Positions 185-14,380 are shown, counted from the stretch's first letter. The stretch: 64,000 nucleotides of DNA from an uncultured Rikenellaceae bacterium (GCA_963770745.1 CAVYRA010000001.1:24832-88831), one strand, 5' to 3'. Notes: a model not told the origin generated them from the sequence alone. Translations and numbers: made by a program.

Positions 185-357
185 CTGAAGGTCCCGAGAA
201 AGTCTATAAAGTATATAAAGTTCGTAAAGTCCATAAAGCTGAGGGTCTGATGTCAGAAAATCTCAAGGATTTGCGATTTGCGAATTTTGATTAAATCGAC
301 AATCGAAAATCTGAAATCGAAAATTCCTCTATTGCCTACTGCCTATTGCCTACTGCC
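185..357. repeat. Dispersed composite short-unit repeat element, copy A (AAAGTC-like units, GATTTGC/AAATCG inverted heptamers, TAGGCAN heptamers)
   Basis: Near-identical to 38378-38522 apart from heptamer copy number. Overlaps the putP stop codon. Confidence 0.85.
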
Positions 358-1796
358 TTCTTTTCGGGGAACAGGAGGCTGAACACTACGGCTGCCGTGA
401 ATGCCAGCAGATAGCTTGCAAGCCGTTCGGAGATGCCTGTGGGATCAGCCAGCCAGGTCTTCCAGATGATTGCTGACAGTGTGCCGGTGATGAGGGAGGC
501 ATAAATGCCCGCCCTTGAAAACTTCTTCCAGAAAAGCAGTAGCACCACTGCCGGGCCGAAGGATGCCCCGATGCCGCTCCAGGCGTAGGAGACGAGTCCG
601 TAGACCGTGTCCTCCATCGTCAGCACCAGCAGGAAGGCTACCACACCCACCATCAGGGTAAGAAACTTATTTAGAAAGAGCAGTCTCTTCTCAGACATGG
701 GCTTTCGCTGCAGGTTGGCCAGGATATCCTCTGTGATTGATGAGGAGACAACTATGAGTTGTGAAGATGCGGTTGACATCATGGCCGACACTGCTCCTGA
801 GAGCAGTATGCCTGCCAGCAGCGGGTTCAGCAGGGTCAGGACCATCACCGGCATGATCTTTTCCGCGTCTGCAGCAATGGCAGCTGCACCTTCGCCCATC
901 AATCCTGCCTGAACCATTCTAAATCCTATGATTCCGATGAGAAAGGCTCCGGTGTAGGCCAGGAGTGTCCATCCTATGGCTACCACTCTTGCCCGCTTTG
1001 TCTCGGCAGGATTACGCATGGCCATCATCCTGTTGAGCAGTTGGGGCTGCCCGGTATAACCGAACGCCCAGCTCAGGCCGTTGACCACCAGCAGGAAGCC
1101 CGCGCCCGCGGTAAGTGTAGCGGAGGCCTCATGCAATGCCATGTCAGAATGTACGAGTGCCTCGGCGAAGCCAATGCCGTTGGTCGCGGCAATAAAAAGG
1201 GCAGCTATCGGAAGCACCACGCATGTGATTATCATCAGGATAGCCTGGAATGCATCGACAGCCACCACTGTGATGAAGCCCCCAAGCATGGAGTAGAGGG
1301 TGACGATGCCCGCACCTATCACCATGCCCCAGAAGGGCTCGATCTGAAAGGTGTCATTGAAGATTTTTCCGGCGCCGCTGAACTGTGCGGAGAGGTACAG
1401 GACGAAGAAGATGATGATGATCACAGACGACAGCAAGCCGATTTTCTTTTCGGAGCCTGGGAATGATCTGAAAAAGAGACCTGACACGGTCAGGGCTCCG
1501 GTTTTTTCGGTGACTCTTCTCAGGGGTTCTGCCATGAAGATCCAGAGGAAGAGTATTCCTGAGACGCACCCTATGGCCACCCAAATGGCGCTCCAACCTT
1601 CGGTGTAGGCAAACCCGGTCAGTCCCAGCAGCAGCCATGCCGACTCACCCGTAGCTCTCTCCGAGAGTGCCAGGAAGAGTCCCGGTATCTTCCTCCCTCC
1701 GAGTACAAAGTCGGCATTGGTCTTTGACCGTCGTGAAGCGAAGACTACAATAGCTATCAGTATGACGAGATATCCGGCGAATACAGCAATCAGCAT
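336..1796 (-). CDS. putP: Sodium/proline symporter (SSS family)
   Basis: 486 aa, ~13 hydrophobic segments; DFVLGGR, SAWLLLGL, GYTGQP, SAMMSTASSQL and VSYAWSGIGASFGP motifs are typical of PutP. Confidence 0.85.
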   Translation of the reverse strand: MLIAVFAGYLVILIAIVVFASRRSKTNADFVLGGRKIPGLFLALSERATGESAWLLLGLTGFAYTEGWSAIWVAIGCVSGILFLWIFMAEPLRRVTEKTGALTVSGLFFRSFPGSEKKIGLLSSVIIIIFFVLYLSAQFSGAGKIFNDTFQIEPFWGMVIGAGIVTLYSMLGGFITVVAVDAFQAILMIITCVVLPIAALFIAATNGIGFAEALVHSDMALHEASATLTAGAGFLLVVNGLSWAFGYTGQPQLLNRMMAMRNPAETKRARVVAIGWTLLAYTGAFLIGIIGFRMVQAGLMGEGAAAIAADAEKIMPVMVLTLLNPLLAGILLSGAVSAMMSTASSQLIVVSSSITEDILANLQRKPMSEKRLLFLNKFLTLMVGVVAFLLVLTMEDTVYGLVSYAWSGIGASFGPAVVLLLFWKKFSRAGIYASLITGTLSAIIWKTWLADPTGISERLASYLLAFTAAVVFSLLFPEKKAVGNRQ

Positions 1797-1984
1797 GGTG
1801 TGTCCTGAACCAGGAATAATTCCGTTGATCAGTCAAAAGAAGTCCTGAATTCATCTCAAATATAGATTTTTCAGAGAATAAAAAAAACTGCGGATGTCGG
1901 GTATCAACACCGTGTATAAAGATGGAAAGGATACCATTCTTGTTATATTGCCCTTTTCTGTTTTCTTTTAAAACTTCTTATTAA

Positions 1985-3232
1985 TTAATTGCATTCTCTA
2001 CCATCTCCTATAATATTAGTCGGCTCTGAAGCTCCCGGGCCTCCTATAATCTGGTTAGCATTATTCTTAATTTCAGAATACTTTAAATTACTTAAAAAGA
2101 TAGTACAGTAAAAGGGTTTTCCCAGAACTACTCCACAGAGATTATTGTCCTTGATAATCCAGTTCTCACCATTTACACTTCCAATACCGAATTGACCACT
2201 CCCCTCAAAAACATTGTCTTTCACCTGAACGTTACTAGCATTCTGCACTCCCAAACCAAGCTGCCCAAAATGAATGCTGTTGTTCACAATAAATGAATTT
2301 CCATCTGGACCTTCCCAAAGTAGTTGGGGCGATGGACCCCGGCTTAACATAACAACAGCGCTCTTACAGTTCTCAATTCTATTATTCTGAATTATCCAAC
2401 TGTGATCAAAGAATGAATATATCCCAAATACACAAGAACTTAAGTGGCTATTCTTTACAATAACACGAGCATCTTCTCCCATAAAACCGTGAGGTTTTAT
2501 ACACCCGGACGCATTTTCAACACTTACATTTTTTACTTCGAATGTGCCATTTGAATTCCCGTAGGCAGATAAACCGGAGAACAAACTATACCCGTCGTAT
2601 AAATATTTTGGATCTTTCTCCCCTGTAATAGAAAGATTCTTGTAACTAACATTTAGATTCACAGGTTTATCTCTTTCATTATCCAGGTCCACGTTGATTA
2701 CCATAATTGCGTGAATCGAATTTATTTCTTTATCCTGTTTGAGACGTACGGGAGTGGGTTCATCTACAATAATTGATAAGTCTGAAACACTGACAGTCCT
2801 TTCATTTTCAAAGTAATCATGTGCGAAACATAACATAAAAGCTCCTCCACTATCTTCAAAAGACCAATTTACCGGTGGGCATCCGCTGATATCGAAAATC
2901 ATTCCCGGTGCAGTACGAATAATAGTATTTCCCATCCCGGAACCTCTAAGTGTTCCGTTAAAATCCCAGCAAACAATACTTTTGTGCAGGTAAAACAGTC
3001 CTTCGCCGAGTTGTACAACATCTCCCGGGCCGGCACTTTGTAGTGCATTTTTGATGCTATTCCAATCTTCTTCTGCTTTGACCAGTGCATCAGTTGCTGT
3101 ACTTGGCATGACTTTCATTTTCGCTTTTTTAAGCTCTGGCTGGGTATCTTCAAAAAGCTCATCGGTTTTGCTGCAACCTGCGACAAGGCTGATTACAGTC
3201 ATCAAAAAGAAAATTCTCACAAATGTTTTCAT
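1985..3232 (-). CDS. Lipoprotein with right-handed parallel beta-helix (pectin-lyase/NosD-like) repeats
   Basis: Likely start ATG at 3232 (MKTFVRIFFLMTVISLVAG-C lipobox). IKNALQSAGPGDVVQLGEG, LRGSGMGNTII and repeated I-x-N-N-x-I/F strands. Confidence 0.7.
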   Translation of the reverse strand: MKTFVRIFFLMTVISLVAGCSKTDELFEDTQPELKKAKMKVMPSTATDALVKAEEDWNSIKNALQSAGPGDVVQLGEGLFYLHKSIVCWDFNGTLRGSGMGNTIIRTAPGMIFDISGCPPVNWSFEDSGGAFMLCFAHDYFENERTVSVSDLSIIVDEPTPVRLKQDKEINSIHAIMVINVDLDNERDKPVNLNVSYKNLSITGEKDPKYLYDGYSLFSGLSAYGNSNGTFEVKNVSVENASGCIKPHGFMGEDARVIVKNSHLSSCVFGIYSFFDHSWIIQNNRIENCKSAVVMLSRGPSPQLLWEGPDGNSFIVNNSIHFGQLGLGVQNASNVQVKDNVFEGSGQFGIGSVNGENWIIKDNNLCGVVLGKPFYCTIFLSNLKYSEIKNNANQIIGGPGASEPTNIIGDGRECN

Positions 3233-3308
3233 GATAGTACTTTTTAAGTTTAACAATATGTATTTGAAATGGTAGTTACCAGAATTCCGGAGTGACCCGG
3301 TGTTGAAA

Positions 3309-3427
3309 GCAGGAAGTGGAGTCTGCACTTCGCTTCCCGCAATAACCCAATTCTAAACCCAATCTATATTTGACCGGTGAATTATGCCCGTGACTGGCAT
3401 ACGTTTCAACTTTCTTACAGGCCGGTC
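3309..3427 (-). ncRNA. Putative structured RNA element, type 1, copy 1
   Basis: GACCGG...CACCGGTC outer stem enclosing a TATGCC/GGCATA hairpin, then GGTTTAGAATTGGGTTA and a terminator-like hairpin with a GCAG loop. Homologous to 7141-7257 and 11426-11546. Confidence 0.6.
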
Positions 3428-3436
3428 CTTAATAGC

Positions 3437-4861
3437 TTATTTTTCCCGTAGCGATTTCATCGCTTCCCTCATTTCTGTAAGGTTGTCAACAATGGTTTCA
3501 CCAAAGGGAGCTTCGGAATAATTGACGCCAAACCCGGTAATTATATTGTTTTCACCGTAATCCTGAACACTTTCTCCGAGATTGCCTCCGACTATGGTCC
3601 AGTTTCTGGTCCCCAAATCAAGCAAAACGGTAGCATTGGAATATGAGGTATTGGAAAAGTTATTGCCAAGCATGAGTCCGTTTTCGTTAAATACAGAGGC
3701 CCCTCTGAAAATTCTGACTCCCCACAATCCTGTGCCGGTAAACCTGTTATTGCGTATCACCATCCCTGACATATTTATACAACCCATGCCTGTAAATGCA
3801 TTATTGCTCATATTGAACCGGTTATTTTTAACCTGAACAGCCATGGATAATTCATCAGGAAAAAATATGCGACGGTTGTCATTTATCAGCATTCCTCCGC
3901 GACCTCCTGAAATGTTGAATTCATTCCGTTCAATCCTGTAAACTGACTGGAAAGACTGCGGCACCTGCTCAAGACGTTCCGGCCAGGGTGCACTGTATAT
4001 CTCCAGTCCAAACCCTGTGCCTGCAGGATTAAAGAAAATATTGTCTTCTACCTGTACTTTTACGCTGGTATTATGCCAGATGCCAAGACTCCTATAGGGA
4101 TTATTCTCAAATACATTTCCATTCTGGCGGGTACCTGCAATGATACTTCCTTCCTTTATCATCATGATACATGCCCCATACCAGCCACCTCCGCTGAAGT
4201 AACTGTTTGTAACGGAAATATCAATATTGGAAAGCGGGGTGATAAATCCCGCCCTCAGCTTTGAATCAGAACCTGTCATTAAGCCGTAGCCAACATTTTC
4301 AGGTTTTCCGATAATCTCCACATTGTCAACAACCACATTAATGTACCTGTTTTCCGGCTCGTAGTATTCAGAAAAACCGAAGAATCCAACCAGTCCTTCA
4401 AGCCAGTCGCGGTCTCCGGTGCTTAATGCTCCGGGAGGAGTGGTGAGTGTCATCCCGCTCATGGTGACATTGCCGCCTACAAACTTCAGCAGAACGGGAT
4501 TAAGGTTCCGGGTGTCCACTTCATCAATGCTGAGGTCGTCAATCGTTGTGACAACAGTTATGCCTTTTCCTGCACCTTTCAATAACCCGCAGAAATCACG
4601 AACTTCAATCAAATCAACATGAAATTCACCAGCCGTCAGCCGGACTTCATTACCAGGGCCGTAGCTCATTGCTTCAGCAAAGGCATGTACAAGATTATCT
4701 GTATCATCACCACCACTAGGGGAGATGATAATAACCTCGTGTGCAGCCTCCTTGCCTTTCAGGTCGACACCTGAATAATCGTCGTCGATATCCGTCGTGC
4801 TGCACGAAAACAGCAGGCAAAGGAATGACGTAAGCAGAATAGAAATCTTAATTGTCTTCAT
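3437..4861 (-). CDS. Lipoprotein with parallel beta-helix repeats (distant paralog of 1985-3232)
   Basis: Likely start ATG at 4861 (MKTIKISILLTSFLCLLFS-C). DDTDNLVHAFAEA...EVRLTAGEF, LKGAGKGITVV and many I-x-N-N-x-F repeats. Confidence 0.7.
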   Translation of the reverse strand: MKTIKISILLTSFLCLLFSCSTTDIDDDYSGVDLKGKEAAHEVIIISPSGGDDTDNLVHAFAEAMSYGPGNEVRLTAGEFHVDLIEVRDFCGLLKGAGKGITVVTTIDDLSIDEVDTRNLNPVLLKFVGGNVTMSGMTLTTPPGALSTGDRDWLEGLVGFFGFSEYYEPENRYINVVVDNVEIIGKPENVGYGLMTGSDSKLRAGFITPLSNIDISVTNSYFSGGGWYGACIMMIKEGSIIAGTRQNGNVFENNPYRSLGIWHNTSVKVQVEDNIFFNPAGTGFGLEIYSAPWPERLEQVPQSFQSVYRIERNEFNISGGRGGMLINDNRRIFFPDELSMAVQVKNNRFNMSNNAFTGMGCINMSGMVIRNNRFTGTGLWGVRIFRGASVFNENGLMLGNNFSNTSYSNATVLLDLGTRNWTIVGGNLGESVQDYGENNIITGFGVNYSEAPFGETIVDNLTEMREAMKSLREK

Positions 4862-5043
4862 GATCATACCGTTTATGTTAGACTTTGGAAAAACACCTCG
4901 TTTGTCCGGTAAAGTTCCCAAAGAATAACAGGCATTACTTATCAATGTCGTATGACAAAGTATAATACCTGTGGAAATCCTTTTAAATTATGTTTCAGTT
5001 ATGCAAATTTTGGAAGGCAGGCCTTTTTCAGAGGCTTCCCTGA

Positions 5044-6999
5044 CTATCTGGCCGGCCTGTTATTGTATGGGGTGAGGCCTATTTTATCGACTATTGCCTG
5101 GAACCGCGGATCATCGCGCAAAATGTCAAAATCAGGATTTGTGGCTAACAGATCGAAATAAGCATGACGTTTCAGTTTCTGTTCCAGGTTTCTCTCGAGC
5201 CAGTAAATAGAGTTTTCCTTATCGCCAAGGATTGCGTACCACCATGAAGTAAAGAACGGATGCCCGCTCAGGCCGAAAACAGGTATTGGCCTAGTGATAT
5301 TGGTCTCGGTCATCCATGTAAACAATCCTTCTATACCTGTATTCCGATAAGCTTCGGATATCTCTTCAACAGAATTTACGGCATCAGGGGAAGTGCGTAC
5401 GATCTGCTGAAGCGACTCTGTTGCCTTCTCTCCATCTCCAAGTTTGGCATAGTTAAGAAAAAAGAGCCAGTCGTTGAAGAGATAACCCTGATGCAGATCC
5501 CTGGCGGTCTGACAGGCTTGTATTGCCGCACGGTGTTTGCCTTCGAAATAATAAACGTAGGCATTCAGGTTATGCAGGATCCAGAAGTGAGGTTCAAGCT
5601 TAAGGGCACGGTCGAGAAATATGCGGGTCTCCTCTATTGGACCGACAATCATAAGCAACTGGGCATAGTACTGGTTGGCTATCGCATAATCCGGTTTCAG
5701 CTTAAGGGCGGTGAGGAGTTCTTTCCGGGCTTCCTCAAACTGGCGATCGCCCCAGCCATGATAGGCGCCAAGGACAGTATGGGCTTCAGCACAATCATGA
5801 TCTAAATCAATAGCTTTTAAACTAAATTCTTTCGCTTTCAGGAACCCGTCCTTTGTCGGATACCATCCATAGGCGGAGAGATCAAACCATGCCTGCGCCA
5901 TACCTGCATAAGCCTCTGTGAAATCCGGATCAGAGGCAACAGCCTTTTCAAAATATTGGATACTTCCCATCAGGCCTTCCCTATCTATGTGTGTACGCTG
6001 TTCATTGATGGATCTGTGAAGCAGGAACCGGCCCCGTAAGTAGAAGTCGTAGGCTTCAGGTTTCTGCGTGGGCAGTTCTTTCATCTGCCTGATTTCACTG
6101 TCAGAAATCGCTGCATTAAGGTTGTATGCCACCTGGAGGGCTATTTCGCCCTGAACTCCGAGAATATTGGTAAGCTTACGGTCAAAATTTTCAGACCAGA
6201 TGTGCTGATCACGCTGAGCATCGATGAGCTGAACGCTTATCCTGACCATATCCCCTTCCTGGCGTATGCTGCCCTCCAGTACATTGCGGGCATCTACCTG
6301 CCGCGCTATTTCTTCGGCAGTAAGGTCTGTATCGCGGTAGTGTTCCGAAGTAGTACGGGATATCACCCTTAAATCACTGATATGATACAGGTTATTCAGA
6401 ATATCCTCCATAATTCCATCAGCAAAATACTGGTTATCAGGATTATTACTGAAGTTATTAAACGGCAGGATTACAATCGATTGTTCTTTTGATTTCAGAA
6501 TGCCTGAGTTGAAAAAGAAGAATACCAGCGCAGCAATAGCGGCAGCAAAAAACGATATTATTATGTAAAACTTACGGGGTGACCAATTAATGGCCACCCT
6601 TTTTTCTTCAGATTTAGTCTCTTCTGCGTCTGTTGTGTATCCCTCTTCCTCTTCGGGTATGATCATCTTCTTCACCTCCCCCGGAGTATACCCGTAATAC
6701 TCATGAAAGCACTTCGTGAAATATGCCGGACTTCCAAATCCCACTTTATAGGCTACCTCGGAAGCAGTGCCCAGATTTTGCTGAAGCATCTCAAGAGCTT
6801 TTTTCAGGCGTATCTCCCTGATATACTGACTTGCATTCTGTTTTTTCAGATGCTTCAGCTTTTTGTGAATGGAGGATCGGCTGATACCGGCCTCCCTGGC
6901 TAACTCCTCAACATCAAATTCCTCTCTCGACAGGTTGGCCTCTACAATCGTCTTAAGTTTATGAATAAATTGCTGATCCGTTGAAAGTGGGTCGGTCAT
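5044..6999 (-). CDS. Membrane-anchored AraC-family regulator with TolB_N-like and TPR sensor domains
   Basis: Likely start MTDPLSTDQ at 6999. N-terminal AraC HTH (EVAYKVGFGSPAYFTKCF), one TM segment, SIVILPFNN...YFADGIMEDIL...LRVISRTT TolB_N-like domain, then TPR repeats. Confidence 0.82.
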   Translation of the reverse strand: MTDPLSTDQQFIHKLKTIVEANLSREEFDVEELAREAGISRSSIHKKLKHLKKQNASQYIREIRLKKALEMLQQNLGTASEVAYKVGFGSPAYFTKCFHEYYGYTPGEVKKMIIPEEEEGYTTDAEETKSEEKRVAINWSPRKFYIIISFFAAAIAALVFFFFNSGILKSKEQSIVILPFNNFSNNPDNQYFADGIMEDILNNLYHISDLRVISRTTSEHYRDTDLTAEEIARQVDARNVLEGSIRQEGDMVRISVQLIDAQRDQHIWSENFDRKLTNILGVQGEIALQVAYNLNAAISDSEIRQMKELPTQKPEAYDFYLRGRFLLHRSINEQRTHIDREGLMGSIQYFEKAVASDPDFTEAYAGMAQAWFDLSAYGWYPTKDGFLKAKEFSLKAIDLDHDCAEAHTVLGAYHGWGDRQFEEARKELLTALKLKPDYAIANQYYAQLLMIVGPIEETRIFLDRALKLEPHFWILHNLNAYVYYFEGKHRAAIQACQTARDLHQGYLFNDWLFFLNYAKLGDGEKATESLQQIVRTSPDAVNSVEEISEAYRNTGIEGLFTWMTETNITRPIPVFGLSGHPFFTSWWYAILGDKENSIYWLERNLEQKLKRHAYFDLLATNPDFDILRDDPRFQAIVDKIGLTPYNNRPAR

Positions 7000-7010
7000 G
7001 CCGGTTATTT

Positions 7011-7049
7011 TCAATAAGTGTAATTTACGAAATTCCTGTGAATAAGTCA
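7011..7049 (-). promoter_or_regulatory. Promoter region shared by the two AraC-TPR paralogs
   Basis: 35/39 identical to 10633-10671. Minus strand reads TGACTTATT...CGTAAATTACAC just upstream of the ATG. Confidence 0.6.
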
Positions 7050-7073
7050 GGATTCCATGAGGTGCATATTATA

Positions 7074-7102
7074 GGAGGAGTAAAGCCGAAGTCTCACTCC
7101 CC
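7074..7102 (-). terminator. Hairpin homologous to the terminator of the type-2 RNA element
   Basis: Minus strand GGGGAGTGAGACTTCGGCTTTACTCCTCC; compare GGGGAGTGAGGCTACGGCTTCACTCCTCC at 11650-11678. Confidence 0.6.
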
Positions 7103-7140
7103 AATGCCCCGAAAATCATTTATAAAGGTCCTGAAATGAA

Positions 7141-7257
7141 GAAGTGAAGCCTGCACTTCACTCCCTGAAATAACCCAATTCTAAACCTATTCGTGTAGAT
7201 GACCGGTGAACTATGCCCGTGGCTGGCATAATTTTTCTGCTTTCTCCCAGGCCGGTC
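7141..7257 (-). ncRNA. Putative structured RNA element, type 1, copy 2
   Basis: Same stems and motifs as copies 1 and 3. Lies in the 3' region of the 139-aa secreted-protein gene. Confidence 0.62.
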
Positions 7258-7280
7258 GGTGGTATGTCAAAGGAAAAGGC

Positions 7281-7700
7281 TCAATTACAGACAACTTTCC
7301 CAATAGTTATCTCTTTTGTCCAATAGCTGTAGGTCAGGGTGCCGATATAGTGTGTACCCCGGTCTCCGATCAGGTTATAGTGCCAGGTCACATACCAGTG
7401 ATCCGTAAAATAATACTTGTCTGTCTCCCTTACCTGAAAGACCTCGCCTGTCTGGCTTGTTACTTCACCCTTAAGCTGATCAATTTCGTAATACTTTCCC
7501 CCGCTGGGAACCACATAATGTACTCTTATCGAGCCGCCTTCGAGCAGATCAACCATCGTGTCACCGCAATAGACCGGTGACCAGTATTCAGACATTAACC
7601 ATCCCTGTACTGCCTTTTGAGCCTTTCCCTGGCCGTAGGCACTTGTCAGGGCCACGCCAATGATTAGGCATAAGCTAATAAAAATTGTTTTCGTTCTCAT
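7281..7700 (-). CDS. Hypothetical secreted protein
   Basis: 139 aa, Sec signal peptide ending SAYG-Q (Gln at +1 is common in Bacteroidota). Beta-rich, Tyr/Trp-rich mature part. Has its own promoter. Confidence 0.75.
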   Translation of the reverse strand: MRTKTIFISLCLIIGVALTSAYGQGKAQKAVQGWLMSEYWSPVYCGDTMVDLLEGGSIRVHYVVPSGGKYYEIDQLKGEVTSQTGEVFQVRETDKYYFTDHWYVTWHYNLIGDRGTHYIGTLTYSYWTKEITIGKVVCN

Positions 7701-7725
7701 GATTATCAGGTATTAGTAATTAATG

Positions 7726-7794
7726 GCAAGTTAGGCACACCATATGAAAGACATTTGACTCTGCGTTCCAAAATCTTTGCACTGCGTACCAAAA
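7726..7794 (-). promoter_or_regulatory. Class A promoter: CTAACTTGC box plus two TGCGTnCCAAAA direct repeats 21 bp apart
   Basis: Same motifs and spacing as 11563-11631, and within 1 bp of the spacing at 11780-11838. Confidence 0.65.
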
Positions 7795-7835
7795 ATTAAA
7801 TTATTGACTACTGTTGTTGAATACATATCCTCTCT

Positions 7836-8441
7836 CTATTGGTTGCCCTTTACCAGGGTGATTGTACCTCTCCAGTGATGAAACGAATTATCAGGATAGG
7901 AATCCCTGTTGTAATCATCGGTATAACCACTTCCTGTGGCTCCCTCAAACCTGCCTGTGCCACCAAGGATTACAAAGGGATCTTTGAAGTATGAGTTTAC
8001 GTCTGCAGGATGATGGTCAAGCCTTCCGTTAAGGACCTGGCCAGCACATGATACATAGAGAATATCTCCGTTGGCAGCTGTGAAAAAAGCTACCATGTGA
8101 CCAGTCGGTCCAGGATAAATGCCAGACATGAATTCACAACAGAATTCAAAATAATGGGTAAACTTACCAAGATGGGTCCCCGTTCCGCCGCCTTCATTGA
8201 TCACCATGCCCCACATGACACCGCCTTCGGGATTCCATTCACCGCAGGTGGCCTCCGGCCCGCCATACATATAGGTTCCTACAAAATCCGCCTTGAACGG
8301 CACCGTGACCGCTTTTTGTTCAGCCTTTCCTTTCTTAAGGCTGACATCCGTATCATTATCAAAATAAGTGTCAGATTTTGAACATGACATTGAAAAGCAG
8401 ACAACTGCCGTCAAAAGAAAGGTTTTTTTCAGTGTTTTCAT
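7836..8441 (-). CDS. Hypothetical lipoprotein (beta-barrel-like; ILGGTGRFEGATGSG motif)
   Basis: Likely start at 8441 (MKTLKKTFLLTAVVCFSMS-C). The GGTGRFEGATG motif recalls dirigent/allene-oxide-cyclase-like barrels. Confidence 0.72.
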   Translation of the reverse strand: MKTLKKTFLLTAVVCFSMSCSKSDTYFDNDTDVSLKKGKAEQKAVTVPFKADFVGTYMYGGPEATCGEWNPEGGVMWGMVINEGGGTGTHLGKFTHYFEFCCEFMSGIYPGPTGHMVAFFTAANGDILYVSCAGQVLNGRLDHHPADVNSYFKDPFVILGGTGRFEGATGSGYTDDYNRDSYPDNSFHHWRGTITLVKGNQ

Positions 8442-8492
8442 AAGCATATGTTTTAGTTTAGCATCAGAAATCTCCTTATCAAGATTCTTATA

Positions 8493-8525
8493 CAAAGTTC
8501 AGCAAAATGAGGAGTGACTGCATAG
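8493..8525 (-). promoter_or_regulatory. Class B promoter CTATGCAG-N17-GAACTTTG
   Basis: Identical 8+8 bp blocks with an identical 17-bp spacer also occur at 11246-11278. Confidence 0.55.
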
Positions 8526-8662
8526 AACTATCCGTGCCATTGATTTAAACAGTGATGCAGGTATTTAAACTATGTTGCACAGGAATGCAACAACACAATC
8601 TTTATAGGATTTTTGGAATGGAGATCAACTGCCGGTAACACTTTCTGCGGTCAGCTGTCGCT

Positions 8663-10621
8663 TTACCCGGGGGGCCTGGTGTTGTAGGGAGTAAGACCCG
8701 CTTTCTCAATGACCGCAAGGAACCGGGGGTCATCTCGCAGGATATCAAAATCAGGATTGGTGGCAATGAGGTTGAAGTAGTGTTTGGGAATAAAAGACAT
8801 TTCAATGGTCTTCTCAAACCACCTGATCGACTCCTCCCTGTTGCCCAGAATGGCATTCCACCATGCAACGAAGAACGGATGCCCGGTCAGACCGTCTACA
8901 GGGATAGGCCTGTTAATATTTATGTCTATAAGCCATGTAAATATTCCATCAATACCTGATTTACGGAATGCATCCATCACCTCATCTCCAAGGTGACTGA
9001 CAGAGGGATAACGCTTAAATAAGTCGTGCAGTGCTATTGCCGCTTTCTCCCCCTCGCCCAGCCTGACATAATGAAGAGCAAACAGCCAGCTGTTGTCAAC
9101 GAAATCAGGATTAAGGTCGCGGGCTGCAATGCAGGCTTCGATTCCCTTCTCATATTCCTCTTCGAAGTAGTAGATCCAGGCATTCAGGTTATGTACCACC
9201 CAGAAATATGGTTCGAGTTCCACAGCACGGTCAACATGTTTCCGTGCATCTTTAATAGGACCTGTAATCATCAGTAGCTGTGCATACCATTGATGTGCCG
9301 TGGAATAATTCGGGTTCAGCTCAATGGCTCTTCCTACCTCTGTTTTGGCCTCTTCAAATTTTCCTTCAGGATATGCCAACCATACGCCCCTTAATGCATG
9401 AGCCTCCGCGCAATCGGGATCAAGCTCCAACGCTCTGGTGAAATTCTCCCTGGCCCTTGCAATACCATCCTGATAAGGTTTGTACCAGCCCCATGCCGAA
9501 AGATTGTACCATGCATTGGCCAGCCCGGCATATGCTTCGGCAAATGTCGAGTCTTCGGCAATCGCCATCTCATAGTACTTCAGGCTGGCCATGAGTCCCT
9601 CCCTGCTGATGTCAAAACGCTGGATATCATTTGCCTGATGAAGCAAAAAGCGGGCCCTGAGATAATAATCCCATGCTTTCGGATTCGCTGTCGGAAGTTC
9701 CCCTATATGACTGGCTTCACTGTCTGTAATGATTGCATTCAGTTTTCCCGCAACCTGCTTTGCAATCTCACCTTGAAGACCGAGCATATCGGTCAGCTCA
9801 CGGTCGTAATTTTCCGACCAGAGATGCTGCTCCTTCTTCCCGTCAATAAGCTGTACTGTTATTCTGACCTTATCGTCCTGCCTTCGAACGCTGCCCTCAA
9901 GAACATTTCGGGCATTTAATTGCCTCGATATCTCTCCTGATGTGAGGTCAGTGTCACGAAAATGCTCTGAGGTTGTACGGGAGATCACCCTCAGATTGCT
10001 GACCTGGTAGAGACTGTTAAGGATATCCTCCATAATGCCGTCAGCAAAATACTGATTGTCAGGATCCCCGCTGAGATTCTTAAAGGGTAGGACCACGATT
10101 GAATTCTCCTTTGACATTCGCATCGGACTAATTGCAACCACAAGAATAATGGCAGCAACAGCAACAGCGAGAGCTGACAGAGCCAGTATTTTTTTCCTTT
10201 TTAACCCAGGATCTGCGGCTGCAGGCTGGTGACTCTCAGACTCGCCTGGCAAGATATCCGGTTTATCTGTCTCATCCTCAAAAATCCGTTTCCTCTCTTC
10301 CCCCGGAGGATAACCGAAATATTCATGAAAACACTTCGAGAAGTATGCCGGACTGCCGAAGCCCACTCTGAATGCCACTTCAGATGCAGTCATGAACTCG
10401 TCACGAAGCATCTCCTGTGCATTCTGCAGGCGGATCTCCCTGATAAATTGACTCGCATTCAGCTTAACCAGATGCTTCAGCCTGCGGTGAATAGCAGACC
10501 GGCTCATGTGTGCTTCCCGGGCAAGCTCCTCAACATTAAATTCCTCTCGTGACAGGTTAATCTCTACTATCTCCCTGAGCTTGCGAATAAATTTCTGATC
10601 TGTTGAAGGCGGGTCAGTCAT
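8663..10621 (-). CDS. Membrane-anchored AraC-family regulator with TolB_N-like and TPR sensor domains (paralog of 5044-6999)
   Basis: Likely start MTDPPSTDQ at 10621. AraC HTH, TM segment, SIVVLPFKNL...YFADGIMEDIL, TPRs, and shared C-terminus ATNPDFDILRDDPRF. Confidence 0.82.
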   Translation of the reverse strand: MTDPPSTDQKFIRKLREIVEINLSREEFNVEELAREAHMSRSAIHRRLKHLVKLNASQFIREIRLQNAQEMLRDEFMTASEVAFRVGFGSPAYFSKCFHEYFGYPPGEERKRIFEDETDKPDILPGESESHQPAAADPGLKRKKILALSALAVAVAAIILVVAISPMRMSKENSIVVLPFKNLSGDPDNQYFADGIMEDILNSLYQVSNLRVISRTTSEHFRDTDLTSGEISRQLNARNVLEGSVRRQDDKVRITVQLIDGKKEQHLWSENYDRELTDMLGLQGEIAKQVAGKLNAIITDSEASHIGELPTANPKAWDYYLRARFLLHQANDIQRFDISREGLMASLKYYEMAIAEDSTFAEAYAGLANAWYNLSAWGWYKPYQDGIARARENFTRALELDPDCAEAHALRGVWLAYPEGKFEEAKTEVGRAIELNPNYSTAHQWYAQLLMITGPIKDARKHVDRAVELEPYFWVVHNLNAWIYYFEEEYEKGIEACIAARDLNPDFVDNSWLFALHYVRLGEGEKAAIALHDLFKRYPSVSHLGDEVMDAFRKSGIDGIFTWLIDININRPIPVDGLTGHPFFVAWWNAILGNREESIRWFEKTIEMSFIPKHYFNLIATNPDFDILRDDPRFLAVIEKAGLTPYNTRPPG

Positions 10622-10695
10622 GCGGGTTCTTCTCAATATGTGTAATTTACGAAATTCCCGGCAATAAGTCAATTCTCTCCTTTTCGGCAAAACTT

Positions 10696-10805
10696 AAAAC
10701 GAAAAAGAGTACCGCATGAACGGGACTGTTTCGCTGGTGCCCGGAAACTAACTAAAGCGCTCACACATGAAAACAATCCTCTCTCCTCGCCCGGGCAACA
10801 GTTAA
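10696..10805 (-). ncRNA. Putative structured RNA, type 3, in the 3' region of the 128-aa gene
   Basis: TGCCCGG/CCGGGCA stem enclosing GATTGTTTTCAT...TTTAGTTAGTTT, followed by an imperfect hairpin and a T-run. Confidence 0.4.
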
Positions 10806-10816
10806 GTCTTTTGAAA

Positions 10817-11203
10817 CTACCATTCAGCTATGGTAGCGATGACGCCGGTCTGGCAGATTAACATGTCAAGAGTATGCGAATCCTTGTTTACATTGCAGTT
10901 TGAGCAGACTTTTGGTGTATTCCCCTGAAGGAAAGCAACCTCGTCATCCCATAGTGAAAAAATGACACTCTCTGCCTGGCATAAATCGAGGCCGTGACCC
11001 AGGCACCCGTCATACCTCATGGAGAGCTGTGCAGGTTCTTTGAATACAATAAGGGGCTCAATTACAATAGTCTTCAAAGCAAAGTTGTTCCCGGACTTGT
11101 TGATCAATTCATGGGCATCGAACCTGACCCGATCGGTAAATGCACCTGCCAGTATCACCACCAGTGGAAGCATAATCTCCTTCAAAACATCCATTCGTTT
11201 CAT
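10817..11203 (-). CDS. Hypothetical protein
   Basis: 128 aa, ATG start, N-terminal hydrophobic stretch, class B promoter upstream. No recognised family. Confidence 0.5.
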   Translation of the reverse strand: MKRMDVLKEIMLPLVVILAGAFTDRVRFDAHELINKSGNNFALKTIVIEPLIVFKEPAQLSMRYDGCLGHGLDLCQAESVIFSLWDDEVAFLQGNTPKVCSNCNVNKDSHTLDMLICQTGVIATIAEW

Positions 11204-11245
11204 AATTCCATTGATTAGTTTGACCTTTGAAACCTGTTGATTTCA

Positions 11246-11278
11246 CAAAGTTCGTTCAGGAGAATGTGTGCTGCATAG
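11246..11278 (-). promoter_or_regulatory. Class B promoter CTATGCAG-N17-GAACTTTG
   Basis: Matches 8493-8525. Confidence 0.55.
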
Positions 11279-11425
11279 CAATATTTCCACTAATAGTTTA
11301 TTTTTCATGTCATTCATTTAATTTATGTTTCTATTAACTATATATTATTATCATATATGAAGATATTACCATATAATAATCAGATTTTAATGTAAAATAA
11401 GAAAATCCTGAAGGTGTTCCGAAAC

Positions 11426-11546
11426 ATAAAAGAAGTGGAGCCTGCACTCCACTTTCATTGATAACCTAATTGTAAACCTATTGAGCAGATGACCGGTGAA
11501 CTATGCCCGTGGCGGGCATATTGAGCTTCTTTCTCCCAGGCCGGTC
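11426..11546 (-). ncRNA. Putative structured RNA element, type 1, copy 3 (free-standing)
   Basis: Starts ~17 nt downstream of a class A promoter box and ends in GAAAGTGGAGT-GCAG-GCTCCACTTCTTTT. No sizeable credible ORF in between. Confidence 0.68.
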
Positions 11547-11562
11547 TGATATTGTGAGTAAG

Positions 11563-11631
11563 GCAAGTTAGGCACAAAGTCTGAAAGGCATTTGACTCTG
11601 CGTCCCAAAATCTTTTCTATGCGTGCCAAAA
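11563..11631 (-). promoter_or_regulatory. Class A promoter driving type-1 RNA copy 3
   Basis: GCAAGTTAG starts 37 nt before GCGT, as at 7726. TGCGTCCCAAAA (11599) and TGCGTGCCAAAA (11620) are 21 bp apart. Confidence 0.65.
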
Positions 11632-11643
11632 CAGCTTTATAGT

Positions 11644-11775
11644 AAAAACGGAGGAGTGAAGCCGTAGCCTCACTCCCCAAAGTACCCGGTATTAATACAT
11701 GACCGGTAACGGTTCTGCTTGAAACCCCCTTTCCCGGGCACTTAATACGGTCACTGCGAGGTCTATGAGATATTC
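11644..11775 (-). ncRNA. Putative structured RNA element, type 2
   Basis: Lies between the class A box at 11780 and a strong terminator (GGGGAGTGAGGC-TACG-GCTTCACTCCTCC-GTTTTT). Its TGACCG...ACCGGTCAT outer stem resembles that of type 1. Confidence 0.55.
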
Positions 11776-11817
11776 TTACGCAAGTTAGAGTACATGACAC
11801 GAGATCCGTTTTGCTCA

Positions 11818-11980
11818 GCGTGCCAAATACTATGCCCTATGTGCCAGTATCATTGCTGTACGTGCCAAAATTATTGCTGTGCGTGCCAAATACTATGCCC
11901 TATGTGCCAAAATTATTGCTGTGCGTGCCAAATACCATGCCGGATGTGCCAATATTATTGCTGTGTATGCCAAAATCATC
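11818..11980. repeat. Tandem array of 8 x 21-bp units with core RYGTGCCAAA
   Basis: Units start at 11818, 11839, 11860, 11881, 11902, 11923, 11944 and 11965 (last one partial). Two unit types: gcgtgccaaatactatgccct and aygtgccaaaattattgctgt. Confidence 0.95.
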
Positions 11981-11981
11981 A

Positions 11982-14150
11982 CTATCTGACAGTACCGCTC
12001 GGGTTAACCCCGAATTCACGCTTATAAACCCTGCTGAAATGAGAGACATTCCTGAAACCGGTCTTGTATGCCGCCTCTGCCACCGTAAGCCTGTGTCCTG
12101 CCAGAAGCTCCTGGGCCCTGTGCAGCCTCAGCGAGCGAAGATATTCAGTCACTGTCCTGTTGGTCAGCGATCTGAACTTTCGGTAAAGCTGCGTGCGGCT
12201 CATCGACATCTGATCACAGATATGCTGGATATCAAGATTTTCATTACCCATGGCCGCAAGCATAATCTCACGTACTTTCCTCATGAAGGCATCCTCTATG
12301 TTAAAATCCCTCTCCTCAATAAGATCGAGATTACCGATCGCTGCATACCGCTCCTGCAGTCTTTTGCGCTGACTGATAAGGGCTCTGAGCTGCGCCTGTA
12401 GCTCCACATTGTTGAACGGTTTCGCAAGATAGGCATCGGCCCCCCTCTCAAGTCCGTTTACTCTTGATGCCACATCTGCCCTGGCAGTAAGTACAACTAC
12501 CGGTATATGGCTTGTCAGCGGGTTCTGCTTTACCCTTCCGAGCATCTCGATGCCATCCATCACAGGCATCATTATGTCTGTAAGGATGAGGTCAGGAATA
12601 TAATCGATGGCTTTTGCAACGCCCTCCTCTCCATCGCCTGCAACAATGACATCATAATCATTGACAAGGAGACTCATCAGATAATGAACAACATCATGAT
12701 TATCCTCAACAACCAGCAACATGGGTTTTTCACTGTGGAAATCAGGATGGGTCTCACTCCGTGCCTCCCTACCTTTTGTACTGTAAATATAATGTGAGAT
12801 TTTCCCTTTGATCTCGTGAAGTCCAGGACCTGTCTGAAGTTCAGCAGATTGAGTTACCGGCAGGGTTACGACAAACTCTGTTCCGCTGCCATAGACACTC
12901 TCGACGCCAATAGAACCTCCGAGGAGAGTCACAACCTCCTTTGTCAGCGCGAGTCCCAGACCGGATCCAGGCGTAATATTCGTCGAGTAAGCGTCACCAC
13001 GGGAAAAACGGTCAAAAATATGCGGCAGAAAGTACTCCGGGATACCTGAACCGTTATCACTTACCCTGATCTCATAATGAGTCTCACTAATTGCGGTACT
13101 TACCTCTATCTTCCCGGTTTGCTGGGTGAACTTGAGAGCATTGGAAATGAGATTTGTGACAATCTGCATCAGCTTTTCAGGGTCATAGTCAATTACAGGG
13201 GCGGGTTCGCATGGTTTGTAATTGAGTGAGATTCTTGCCGTTGCCGCAACTGACCTGAACAGTTCTAATATATACCTGATATAGATATTTATATCTGCCC
13301 TTATCAGACGGACCGGTGTGGCCCCTGCTTCAAGCTTAGAGAGATCGAGCATCTGGTTAACCAGTGTCAGCAAAACCTTTGCATTCCTGTCAATAGCTTC
13401 AGAACCTTCTGTGAGCCATCTCTCCGGTTCCTTGCGGATCAGATCATTCATTCCCGTTATGACGGTCAGCGGTGTCCGGAACTCATGGGTGATGTTGGTG
13501 TAGAGACGAGTCCGAGCCTCATCAATCTCCCTTATCCGTTCGGTCTCACTCTTCTCGAGCTTAACACGCTGAACAATAAAGCTCATCACGAAGACCATCG
13601 CAAAGGTTGATATCCATATGAGATTCACAACATAGAGTGAGATGTTGACTTCAGTGGTCATTTCCGGCGGCACCTCGAGATACGGATTAAGAACACCCGC
13701 AAGAATAATTGTAATCACATAAACATAATATATCCACAGTGAATGCCTTCTTTTTTTGAAGTTGAGAGAGAAGAAAATCATTGCAAGTCCGACAACCACA
13801 AGGCCACCTGAATAGGGTATTCCTCCAAGCAATAGTATGGTTACGAATGTGGCAAGCGCCACGATGGTCTGATTAATGACCAGAAGCACCAACCCGGTCC
13901 TTCGTAATATTAACGGGTATATTACTCCCTGCAGAAATACTAGCGACAGGGAAAACCCATAGGTTATCAGGATCTTTAGCTGGGGGAATATGATGTGATA
14001 AGCAAGCGTCAGCAAAAAAATCATGACAGTGACAGCAACACTGGCAATCCAGTAGATCTTTTTCTGGGCCAGGCCGTCTTTATCAAGGGAGGGATGATAA
14101 AGAATCCTTGAAATCCAATTGTCTGCTTTTAAGAGAAAGGGGGTAGCCAT
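11982..14150 (-). CDS. Hybrid two-component regulator (membrane sensor, histidine kinase, receiver, AraC HTH)
   Basis: ~6 TM N-terminus, NITHEFRTPL H-box, NLISNALKF, DNGSGI, GSGLGL, receiver (VEDN, LTDIMMP, YLAKPF) and C-terminal AraC HTH. Confidence 0.92.
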   Translation of the reverse strand: MATPFLLKADNWISRILYHPSLDKDGLAQKKIYWIASVAVTVMIFLLTLAYHIIFPQLKILITYGFSLSLVFLQGVIYPLILRRTGLVLLVINQTIVALATFVTILLLGGIPYSGGLVVVGLAMIFFSLNFKKRRHSLWIYYVYVITIILAGVLNPYLEVPPEMTTEVNISLYVVNLIWISTFAMVFVMSFIVQRVKLEKSETERIREIDEARTRLYTNITHEFRTPLTVITGMNDLIRKEPERWLTEGSEAIDRNAKVLLTLVNQMLDLSKLEAGATPVRLIRADINIYIRYILELFRSVAATARISLNYKPCEPAPVIDYDPEKLMQIVTNLISNALKFTQQTGKIEVSTAISETHYEIRVSDNGSGIPEYFLPHIFDRFSRGDAYSTNITPGSGLGLALTKEVVTLLGGSIGVESVYGSGTEFVVTLPVTQSAELQTGPGLHEIKGKISHYIYSTKGREARSETHPDFHSEKPMLLVVEDNHDVVHYLMSLLVNDYDVIVAGDGEEGVAKAIDYIPDLILTDIMMPVMDGIEMLGRVKQNPLTSHIPVVVLTARADVASRVNGLERGADAYLAKPFNNVELQAQLRALISQRKRLQERYAAIGNLDLIEERDFNIEDAFMRKVREIMLAAMGNENLDIQHICDQMSMSRTQLYRKFRSLTNRTVTEYLRSLRLHRAQELLAGHRLTVAEAAYKTGFRNVSHFSRVYKREFGVNPSGTVR

Positions 14151-14380
14151 CTTTTAAACAGATCAAGGTTGAAAATCAAATTCTTAACAAGTTACTACAT
14201 TACTAAAGACAAGTCAAGTATTTTATTTAGTTGTTTGACTGCATTGAAATTACGAAGACAAATAATCCTTGAGTGCCGGGACTTCTTTCAAACTTTTCGA
14301 GTTTGTTCCACCATGTTTAACCTATTTATTTATCTTTGAAATAATGCTTAACCGCTGAGATAACATAAACCACCAATATC

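Follow-up and report, generated by a model that had tools for sequence, protein, structure and literature searches.

Which regulatory logic holds together a run of regulator genes, genes for exported proteins and repeated noncoding elements on a single strand was the question raised by a stretch of 64,000 nucleotides (nt) from an uncultured Rikenellaceae bacterium (G000:C1:24832-88831; the whole stretch is called the window). The source genome comprises 18 contigs with 3.4 Mb and is 88% complete. The island in question spans positions 1985-14150 of the window, and in a reading-frame survey of the window every real gene of the island was located on the minus strand. It contains one hybrid two-component system regulator (HTCS), an array of eight 21-bp units, two regulators that combine an AraC-type DNA-binding domain with tetratricopeptide repeats (AraC-TPR), five genes for exported proteins, one copy of a structured RNA element named RNA-A and three copies of another one, RNA-B. 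This system is real, conserved and internally consistent; the two RNA families are new, and the AraC-TPR regulator family appears to be undescribed. From the sequence we consider it probable that the island encodes a two-tier cascade of membrane regulators, in which the HTCS would act on one type of promoter (class A), the AraC-TPR genes would be among its targets, and the AraC-TPR proteins would in turn act on a second type (class B). The anatomy of the island, its conservation, the co-occurrence of its elements and the evidence for structure in the RNAs are established by the sequence comparison.

Binding and activation by the HTCS and the AraC-TPR proteins, the signal and the function of the RNAs we infer as follows. 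The island would be the core of an envelope-signalling regulon. The membrane-embedded HTCS would bind 21-bp direct repeats (TTGGNAC-N14) through its AraC-type domain and, placed over the -33 region, would activate weak sigmaA-type promoters with a TAACTTGC or GAACTTTG box 38 nt past the last core. The genes under control of these class A promoters would be RNA-B, RNA-A with the AraC-TPR genes that follow it, and those of many small exported proteins, inside the island as well as at dispersed sites. The AraC-TPR proteins would be ToxR-like single-pass regulators with the TPR part as periplasmic sensor. Their targets would be the class B promoters, each placed immediately after the gene of its regulator, and an interchangeable lipoprotein or secreted cargo protein would thereby be switched on. 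RNA-A and RNA-B, as terminator-ended structured RNAs, would most likely act as trans-acting small RNAs.

Organization of the island

Along the direction of transcription the order is HTCS, array, RNA-A, a two-unit promoter with RNA-B copy 1, p128, AraC1, p219, a second two-unit promoter, p139, RNA-B copy 2, AraC2, BH_502, RNA-B copy 3 and BH_447. Protein domains were assigned by Pfam, and transmembrane (TM) and signal features by sequence and hydropathy. The features are as follows.

11985-14150, minus strand: HTCS (Pfam, hydropathy)
11808-11975, minus strand: array of eight 21-bp units of the TTTGGCAC-N7-GCAA type, proposed HTCS operator (repeat search)
11780-11787, minus strand: TAACTTGC box of the array promoter, proposed -7 element (geometry as in relatives)
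11645-11775, minus strand: RNA-A (alignment of 9 copies, structure)
11563-11631, minus strand: class A promoter with two 21-bp units and a TAACTTGC box at 11570-11563 (repeat search)
11418-11557, minus strand: RNA-B copy 1 (repeat match of about 125 nt, 11546-11418) with its own class A promoter; terminator hairpin at 11454-11433
11204-11417, minus strand: AT-rich spacer of 214 bp (GC 0.36) upstream of p128, holding a GAACTTTG box
10820-11203, minus strand: p128 (comparison of homologues)
8666-10621, minus strand: AraC1 (Pfam, sequence features)
8493-8662, minus strand: class B promoter region with three 21-bp-phased units (GCAACATAGTTTAAA...) and a GAACTTTG box at 8500-8493
7839-8447, minus strand: p219 lipoprotein (sequence features, model)
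7725-7794, minus strand: class A promoter before p139 with two units and a TAACTTGC box at 7733-7726
7284-7700, minus strand: p139 (type I signal peptide)
7118-7268, minus strand: RNA-B copy 2 (repeat match 7257-7127), directly past the p139 stop codon
7074-7104, minus strand: RNA-A-type hairpin between RNA-B copy 2 and AraC2
5047-6999, minus strand: AraC2 (Pfam, sequence features)
4868-5043, minus strand: BH_502 promoter region with a single class B-like word (GAAACATAATTTAAA)
3440-4867, minus strand: BH_502 beta-helix lipoprotein (Pfam Beta_helix, lipoprotein signal)
3290-3438, minus strand: RNA-B copy 3 (repeat match 3427-3300), directly past the BH_502 stop codon
1988-3235, minus strand: BH_447 beta-helix lipoprotein (Pfam Beta_helix, lipoprotein signal)
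336-1796, minus strand: flanking PutP-like sodium:solute symporter (Pfam)
14381-16444, plus strand: flanking S9 dipeptidyl peptidase of the Dpp5 type, which forms the conserved left border of the island (Pfam)

Parts of the island are used more than once. A promoter unit of 70 nt is present twice with 86% identity (7794-7725 and 11631-11562), and a hairpin is common to 11680-11650 and 7104-7074. The real starts of the p219, BH_502 and BH_447 open reading frames (ORFs) lie downstream of the mechanical ORF starts. An earlier reading of this DNA from its sequence alone had described minus-strand modules of regulators, cargo proteins and RNAs, and all of these elements were found in place. The same sequence-only reading had recognized no transporter; this holds for the range 1985-14150, but the PutP-like symporter is located just outside.

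The HTCS and the class A promoters

The HTCS matched the Pfam families HisKA (E-value 1.8e-12), HATPase_c (8.6e-29), Response_reg (1.3e-22) and HTH_18 (2.2e-22). The H-box THEFRTPL and the receiver motif LTDIMMP ... KPF are readable, and by this reading the phospho-acceptor His and Asp are present. Residues 1-200 hold about six TM segments and HisKA begins at residue 213. No periplasmic sensor domain was detected, as residues 1-200 gave no Pfam match at E-values up to 5. Atlas features hint at a MASE-type membrane sensor in the N-terminus, which is only a lead.

Class A promoters consist of a varying number of 21-bp TTGGNAC repeats and a TAACTTGC box 38 nt past the last core. The distance from the start of the last TTGGNAC core to the start of the box was exactly 38 nt in 21 promoters from 14 loci; for the array promoter of the window it was 39 nt, counted from the start of the last TTGGCAC core. 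The box resembles the -7 element of Bacteroidota sigmaA (sigmaABfr), for which the available part of one publication gives the consensus TAnnTTTG (PMC7366714). If it is read as a -7 element, the last 21-bp unit comes to lie over the -33 region. A reading of TGGCAC-N5-GCAA as a sigma-54 promoter was ruled out, because the spacing from GG to GC is 10 and not 12. The eight-unit array begins 9 nt past the HTCS stop codon. Its units belong to two alternating subtypes with GCACAGCAATAA and ATAGGGCATAGT second halves, which accounts for the higher-order periods of 42 and 63 bp in the tandem-repeat output. Every related locus with an HTCS has two to four 21-bp units behind the HTCS stop codon, compared to eight in the window. 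TTGGNAC pairs at 21-bp spacing occurred 12 times in the genome of the window and 3 times in shuffled sequence.

HTCS orthologues were present in 29 of 60 genomes of the genus. This count includes four partial genes at contig ends and the broken but syntenic gene of G008, while four further genomes with only paralogues of 34-42% identity were counted as negative. We scanned the same 60 genomes for the pattern TTGGNAC-N14-TTGGNAC and used the backwards pattern as a control. The 29 HTCS-positive genomes contained 186 sites (median 5), with at least 4 sites in 20 of them, and the 31 HTCS-negative genomes contained 20 sites (median 0), with at least 4 sites in none. The control pattern gave about 1 site per genome in both groups. 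The site counts of the two groups differed with a Mann-Whitney p of 9e-9, which is overstated as the genomes are kin. In a recA nucleotide tree of 20 genomes, four HTCS-negative genomes each stood beside HTCS-positive relatives; four changes of the HTCS are needed on this tree, and at least three are forced by supported branches. The tree is only a rough guide, because recA is a single gene and adjoins the island. The operator variants (GCAGAGCAAA, AAATAGAACAA and CTGGCAA types) follow the HTCS clades, and seven loci with HTCS and class A promoters have no AraC-TPR gene (G008, G010, G015, G016, G018, G053, G147). Activation of the class A promoters by the HTCS is the best-supported reading of these sequence data.

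Behind class A promoters we found RNA-B, RNA-A followed by AraC-TPR, AraC-TPR directly (G022), p139, p219-like genes and a pair of genes of no assigned family, one of them with a sorting domain of the type IX secretion system (T9SS). An AraC-TPR gene is preceded by a class A promoter, with or without RNA-A, in G005, G019, G022, G091, G126 and G178. The operator also occurs at up to 25 dispersed sites per genome, which are very uniform (TTGGCACACAGAGAACAATCTTTGGGAC) and often clustered. For three clusters, 14 of 18 sites were located about 100-190 nt upstream of a co-oriented ORF, and 13 of these 14 ORFs have a signal-like N-terminus. The families behind dispersed sites are SnoaL/DUF4440, DUF1579-like, the Fibrobacter major paralogous domain and T9SS sorting domains, or none is assigned. 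The other 4 of the 18 sites precede short hairpin-ended noncoding units or Cys-rich microproteins. The genome of the window has four dispersed sites on contigs C6, C14 and C17, so that the regulon of the HTCS, as far as predicted binding goes, reaches well past the island. A closed regulatory system confined to the island does not agree with this distribution.

Some observations on single genomes may be added. Up to seven class A promoters are found within about 10 kb in G147 (L128, L129) and G008 (L130), mostly before small exported proteins; some precede Cys-rich microproteins of 40-62 amino acids (aa), and the short hairpin-ended noncoding units of these clusters carry a GGGGGUUU motif like RNA-A. 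HTCS orthologues with 5-11 in-frame stops occur at G126:C10:1088590-1090704, G189:C1:24260-26428 and G008:C1:168226-169839, and these may be pseudogenes or may reflect poor assembly. Dispersed class A sites are still numerous in G008 (18) and G189 (11). The genome of the window has a second, distant HTCS-like gene with AraC output (G000:C6:143671-145435, 31% identity in the kinase part), the operator of which could overlap with class A.

The AraC-TPR regulators and the class B promoters

AraC1 and AraC2 are paralogues with 57% identity and identical architecture: an N-terminal HTH_18 domain (residues 38-135), one hydrophobic segment (residues 146-175 or 165-194) and C-terminal TPRs. Basic residues precede the single TM segment, and the positive-inside rule predicts a cytoplasmic N-terminus and a periplasmic C-terminus for both. 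A TolB_N domain between TM segment and TPRs had been part of the first description of these proteins. AraC, TM and TPR were recovered, but the match to TolB_N (PF04052; E-value 0.063, profile positions 16-105 of 106) stays below threshold with 13.8 bits compared to a cut-off of 22.4, and FlgO gave another sub-threshold match in the same region (E-value 0.035). Full-length or partial homologues of AraC1 were present in 17 of 201 genomes sampled across the order (E-value ≤ 1e-30). Our literature search brought up no published account of N-terminal AraC-TM-TPR regulators in Bacteroidota, which is not proof of absence.

Class B promoters are defined by CAACATAGTT words and were found with AraC-TPR genes across genera, among them Draconibacterium, Mariniphaga and Lentimicrobium. 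In the spacer between AraC-TPR gene and cargo gene a distal CAACATAGTTtAAA is followed after about 42 nt (two 21-bp steps) by a proximal (G/A)CAACATAGTTGCTATGTAC and then by a GAACTTTG-type box. Both G100 and G091 conserve the 170 nt behind AraC1; the next gene is p219 in G100 and a BH_502-like gene in G091. Since this region is kept despite differing cargo, the class B promoter travels with the regulator and not with the cargo. Of 32 regions behind AraC-TPR genes, 16 held two or more copies of the word (mean 1.75 compared to 0.55 in shuffled sequence), whereas only 4 of 39 control regions upstream of p219 without a regulator did so. These counts are only descriptive, because the word was defined after some of these sequences had been seen.

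We also analyzed the neighbourhoods of p219-family genes at 80 loci obtained by a scan of reference genomes. A co-oriented full-length AraC-TPR homologue was located upstream in 29 of the 80 loci and an HTCS homologue in 9; the remaining 42 had neither, 8 of them with less than 2.5 kb of upstream sequence. Outside the Dpp5/recA island there were 64 p219-family loci, 21 with AraC-TPR and 4 with HTCS, and they include metagenome-assembled genomes labelled Draconibacterium, Mariniphaga, Lentimicrobium and Prolixibacteraceae. The AraC-TPR loci of other genera have class B words and no TTGGNAC repeats. The association of promoters and RNAs with these regulators, which the sequence-only reading had left to be sought elsewhere, was found in other genomes. 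The cascade of AraC-type sensors that it had sketched is borne out to the extent that sequence links the HTCS with class A, AraC-TPR with class B, and class A promoters with AraC-TPR genes behind them.

Structure and distribution of RNA-B and RNA-A

RNA-B has a length of about 130 nt, and the genome of the window has no copy beyond the three in the window. A DNA search covered 24 other genomes of the genus, 12 of which had RNA-B, and 16 genomes from 16 other families, none of which had it. With a covariance model, 25 of 39 further genomes of the genus showed strong matches (E < 1e-20), whereas 19 other genera of the family, represented by 111 genomes, yielded only three weak ones. By its strong matches RNA-B is restricted to the genus. 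The alignment of 16 copies revealed three helices and highly conserved unpaired stretches; the unpaired GGCCUGGGAGAAAG, the CCACGGG loop and the GUGCAGGC loop are more conserved than the stems. In 30 copies aligned to the model 96.6% of the cells were paired, compared to 34-45% with slid partners, and 10 of 24 pairs showed double changes; none of 500 shuffles reached the observed values, although the alignment was fitted to the model, which favours the structure. The G-U pairs fit the gene strand only. The last helix was flagged as terminator-like by a terminator scan.

Among 26 strong RNA-B copies, 10 have their own class A promoter with the box 17-26 nt before the first helix, and 16 are located directly past a stop codon. 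RNA-B is found directly upstream of the symporter in 10 of 11 loci that have a symporter. A function as leader of the symporter was rejected, as the symporter keeps its own conserved upstream sequence and BH_447 intervenes in the window. We also rejected a small peptide encoded by RNA-B, since the ATG frame is lost or shifted in 2 of the 16 copies (one frame lost, one without ATG). Two divergent RNA-B-like elements (L013:14006-14135 and L031:9164-9338; E-values 1e-5 and 4e-10) lie beside p128-like genes, the L013 element directly downstream of such a gene. The strict model may capture only part of the RNA-B family.

RNA-A, as aligned from 9 copies, forms a long-range stem, an inner hairpin and a strong terminal hairpin, and contains the unpaired GAAAGGGGGUUU and an invariant unpaired GGGGG motif. 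One pair of the inner hairpin shows compensatory changes (UA 4, GC 3, AU 2). In five genomes RNA-A has a class A promoter before it and the AraC-TPR start after it; in the G015 type it comes after RNA-B. In the window it ends in a hairpin with a U-run, and the next promoter, not an AraC gene, follows.

No Rfam 15 family matched the 64-kb window at the gathering score, and thus none matched RNA-A or RNA-B. A search by E-value of positions 1800-14400 gave only three sub-threshold matches at chance level, none of them on RNA-A or on the conserved core of RNA-B; one, on the reverse strand, brushes the 3' end of RNA-B copy 2. The RNA family that had been suspected in this island is conserved and structured for both RNAs, and its regulatory role stays putative.

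Exported cargo proteins

The p219 family comprises 303 homologues, all unnamed and none with a Pfam domain. The model of p219 (predicted local distance difference test, pLDDT, 88) is a beta-barrel; the best folds were dirigent/allene-oxide-cyclase-like (E-value 1e-4, TM-score 0.4-0.5), which suggests a weak resemblance to small-molecule-binding barrels. The secreted p139 has a type I signal peptide and an all-beta model (pLDDT 80); neither a Pfam family nor a named Atlas cluster matched it, nor did any PDB fold at E-values ≤ 0.001. No PDB sequence match was obtained for BH_447 and BH_502. The p128 family consists of lipoproteins that are about 172 aa long, have a Cys-rich C-terminus and give a weak ZU5-like match. 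The p128 gene of the window is internally deleted: the lipobox and the ZU5-like N-terminal part, present in eight relatives, are missing. Together with the 214-bp AT-rich stretch and its own GAACTTTG box (10820-11417) it may represent a recent rearrangement or a decaying gene. As had been anticipated, the cargo is diverse and exported, with signals on the cargo proteins and variable content across related loci.

Variation of the island in related genomes

We fetched 22 related loci and mapped the proteins and elements of the window on them. The flanks are constant, with Dpp5 on one side and recA on the other, sometimes together with the symporter, and the content in between is variable. The smallest form consists of HTCS, promoter, RNA-B and recA (G010, G068). 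Larger islands add p128-like, p219-like, p139 and beta-helix lipoprotein genes and one to three AraC-TPR genes, and some a pair of proteins of no assigned family, one member of which has a T9SS sorting domain. Genomes lacking the HTCS retain different parts: array, RNA-A and AraC in G178; AraC1, p219 and the promoter-p139-RNA-B unit in G100; and, in G006, G017 and G080, no more than the C-terminal remnant of an AraC-TPR gene, fused beside RNA-B and the symporter. In several genomes a protein of 801 aa with PD40 beta-propeller repeats and a weak BamA-like C-terminal match is encoded between Dpp5 and HTCS/AraC (L014:18-2423, L025:1217-3619, L026:13504-15900 and others); it is not found in the window.

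Alternative explanations

Several observations weigh against the proposed cascade. Two genomes without HTCS (G100, G178) have retained a class A promoter, the boxes of which are altered (TAGCTTGT, CAACTTGC), another one (G006) keeps two consensus-like dispersed sites, and 9 of the 29 HTCS-positive genomes have fewer than 4 class A sites. The genomes of one genus are kin, and counts overstate their independence. The class B word was set post hoc, only half of the regions carry it at least twice, and regions of the AraC2 type have at most a single word. In G006, G017 and G080 RNA-B lacks a visible upstream promoter, and the RNA-A hairpin lacks a good U-run in most genomes. Pairing of RNA-B with the starts of 10 local genes revealed no outlier in comparison to 600 background genes (all |z| ≤ 2.0; most favourable z = -1.4). 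Of the genomes searched for both, 15 were HTCS-positive and 20 HTCS-negative, and strong RNA-B was present in 11 of each group. The RNA motif is thus found beside these regulators elsewhere, as had been expected, but is kept in more than half of the genomes in this comparison that lack the HTCS.

The persistence of RNA-B without HTCS and the lack of a local pairing target would fit a cis-acting role of both RNAs, with RNA-A as an attenuating 5' leader of AraC-TPR genes and RNA-B as a stabilizer, terminator or insulator at the 3' end of cargo genes; the protein cascade would remain unchanged. The 16 RNA-B copies directly past a stop codon and the position of RNA-A between class A promoter and AraC-TPR start in five genomes, with a hairpin mostly lacking a U-run, are also in line with this, and RNA-A, instead of being a free RNA, may form the leader of the AraC-TPR gene. 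However, 10 of the 26 RNA-B copies stand alone as promoter, about 130 nt, terminator and next promoter, the RNA-A of the window ends in hairpin and U-run before another promoter, and the unpaired stretches of RNA-B outdo the stems in conservation, which points to contacts in trans. We regard a purely cis-acting role as unlikely and prefer trans-acting RNAs as outputs of the cascade. As to the DNA-level features, cassette exchange or mobility, with RNA-B as an attC-like site and the array serving recombination or replication, might be suspected from the highly variable gene content between fixed flanks (Dpp5 and recA or the symporter), the common orientation of all island genes and the frequent position of RNA-B at the 3' end of cargo genes. 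No integrase, transposase or recombinase was found in the ten main frames of the island and its flanks, or in the scanned or compared frames of related loci. Moreover, G-U pairs and compensatory changes of RNA-B fit a gene-strand RNA, and the class A repeats keep a fixed distance to a promoter box and also precede dispersed single genes, so that we give hardly any weight to this explanation.

It was also considered whether the class A repeats are bound by another regulator, AraC-TPR or a different AraC-type protein, with the link to the HTCS arising from shared ancestry. The genomes compared are related to each other, class A promoters stand beside AraC-TPR genes without HTCS in G100 and G178, and the genome of the window encodes eight HTH_18 proteins, one of them the second HTCS-like gene on contig C6. 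Against these points, HTCS-only loci without an AraC-TPR gene have class A promoters, the AraC-TPR loci of other genera lack the repeats, operator variants follow the HTCS clades, and the threshold of at least 4 sites separates 0 of 31 from 20 of 29 genomes across at least three independent losses. Binding by another regulator seems very unlikely to us, and we retain the HTCS as the predicted activator.

Beyond the cascade itself, the island could be a membrane-proximal hub. The anchored regulators would prefer DNA that co-translational export of neighbouring gene products draws to the membrane, RNA-A and RNA-B as diffusible outputs would take the signal away from it, the barrel lipoprotein would feed back on the TPR as ligand carrier, and the eight-unit array would be a landing pad or titration sink. 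Such a hub would explain the exported targets, the promoter behind each AraC-TPR gene and the array at the end of the HTCS; it is a speculative extension with a small chance of being correct.

Comparison to known systems

Most knowledge of signal transduction in Bacteroidota comes from glycan-sensing HTCS and from pairs of extracytoplasmic function (ECF) sigma and anti-sigma factors of gut species. Like the HTCS of polysaccharide utilization loci in Bacteroides, the HTCS of the island combines HisKA, HATPase_c, receiver and AraC-type HTH in one membrane polypeptide, with neighbouring genes as targets, here proposed from sequence. Unlike these it has no periplasmic sensor and no SusC/SusD or glycan-degrading neighbours; such genes were absent from the island, and SusC/SusD also from the 22 related loci compared with the window proteins. 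Its proposed targets are small RNAs, membrane regulators and small exported proteins, many of them dispersed.

Operators of the AraC/XylS family (AraC I1-I2, RhaS, the MarA marbox) are direct repeats with a period of 21 bp at the upstream promoter element. The class A unit, with GCAC and an A-rich second half, seems similar to the marbox. It differs in that the arrays of the island reach eight units and the promoter boxes are of the Bacteroidota sigmaA type described in the available part of PMC7366714.

AraC1 and AraC2 share with ToxR, CadC and TcpP an N-terminal DNA-binding domain, one TM segment preceded by basic residues, and a periplasmic sensor. They are distinguished from ToxR and CadC by a DNA-binding domain of the AraC-type HTH_18 instead of an OmpR-type winged helix, and by a periplasmic part made of TPR. 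According to the accessible section of one study, single-pass transmembrane transcription regulators include "co-component" pairs (bioRxiv 10.1101/2022.04.08.487670), and as in such pairs, a gene for a periplasm-facing partner adjoins the AraC-TPR regulator. Because the neighbouring lipoprotein is interchangeable and also found behind HTCS genes, it fits a target better than a fixed co-sensor.

For Vibrio cholerae, the portions at hand of two publications describe TfoS, a membrane-bound AraC-type regulator that activates the small RNA gene tfoR (PMC3903286, PMC11856585). As far as these portions go, TfoS/ChiS-TfoR and the island have in common a membrane-anchored AraC-type regulator with a small RNA gene as direct target (here predicted) and two membrane regulators in one pathway. 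No sequence relation between the two systems was seen, though no search aimed at it was made, and the RNAs differ; furthermore, the first regulator of the island has a full phosphorelay, and the second tier combines an N-terminal AraC domain with periplasmic TPR. Intergenic and 3'-end small RNAs of Bacteroides such as GibS, in the section available (PMC7366714), share with RNA-B a length of about 130 nt, an intrinsic terminator, conservation of the unpaired regions and either a promoter of their own or a position at the 3' end of a gene. In contrast, the RNAs of the island have no Rfam family, and strong RNA-B matches are limited to one genus.

The island thus offers an HTCS without periplasmic sensor whose operator and regulon, with up to 25 sites per genome, are readable in the sequence alone, and a widespread single-pass AraC-TPR family with cognate promoter and lipoprotein partner, as well as two new structured RNA families under predicted control. 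It suggests a testable two-tier cascade of membrane regulators with small-RNA outputs, parallel to TfoS/ChiS-TfoR in Vibrio. The gain, exchange and loss of regulatory modules between fixed flanks constitute a natural experiment.

Outside the island, positions 199-358 of the window hold several short tandem repeats with periods of 7-9 bp, at the 3' end of the symporter gene and immediately beyond it; the gene overlaps the final repeat.

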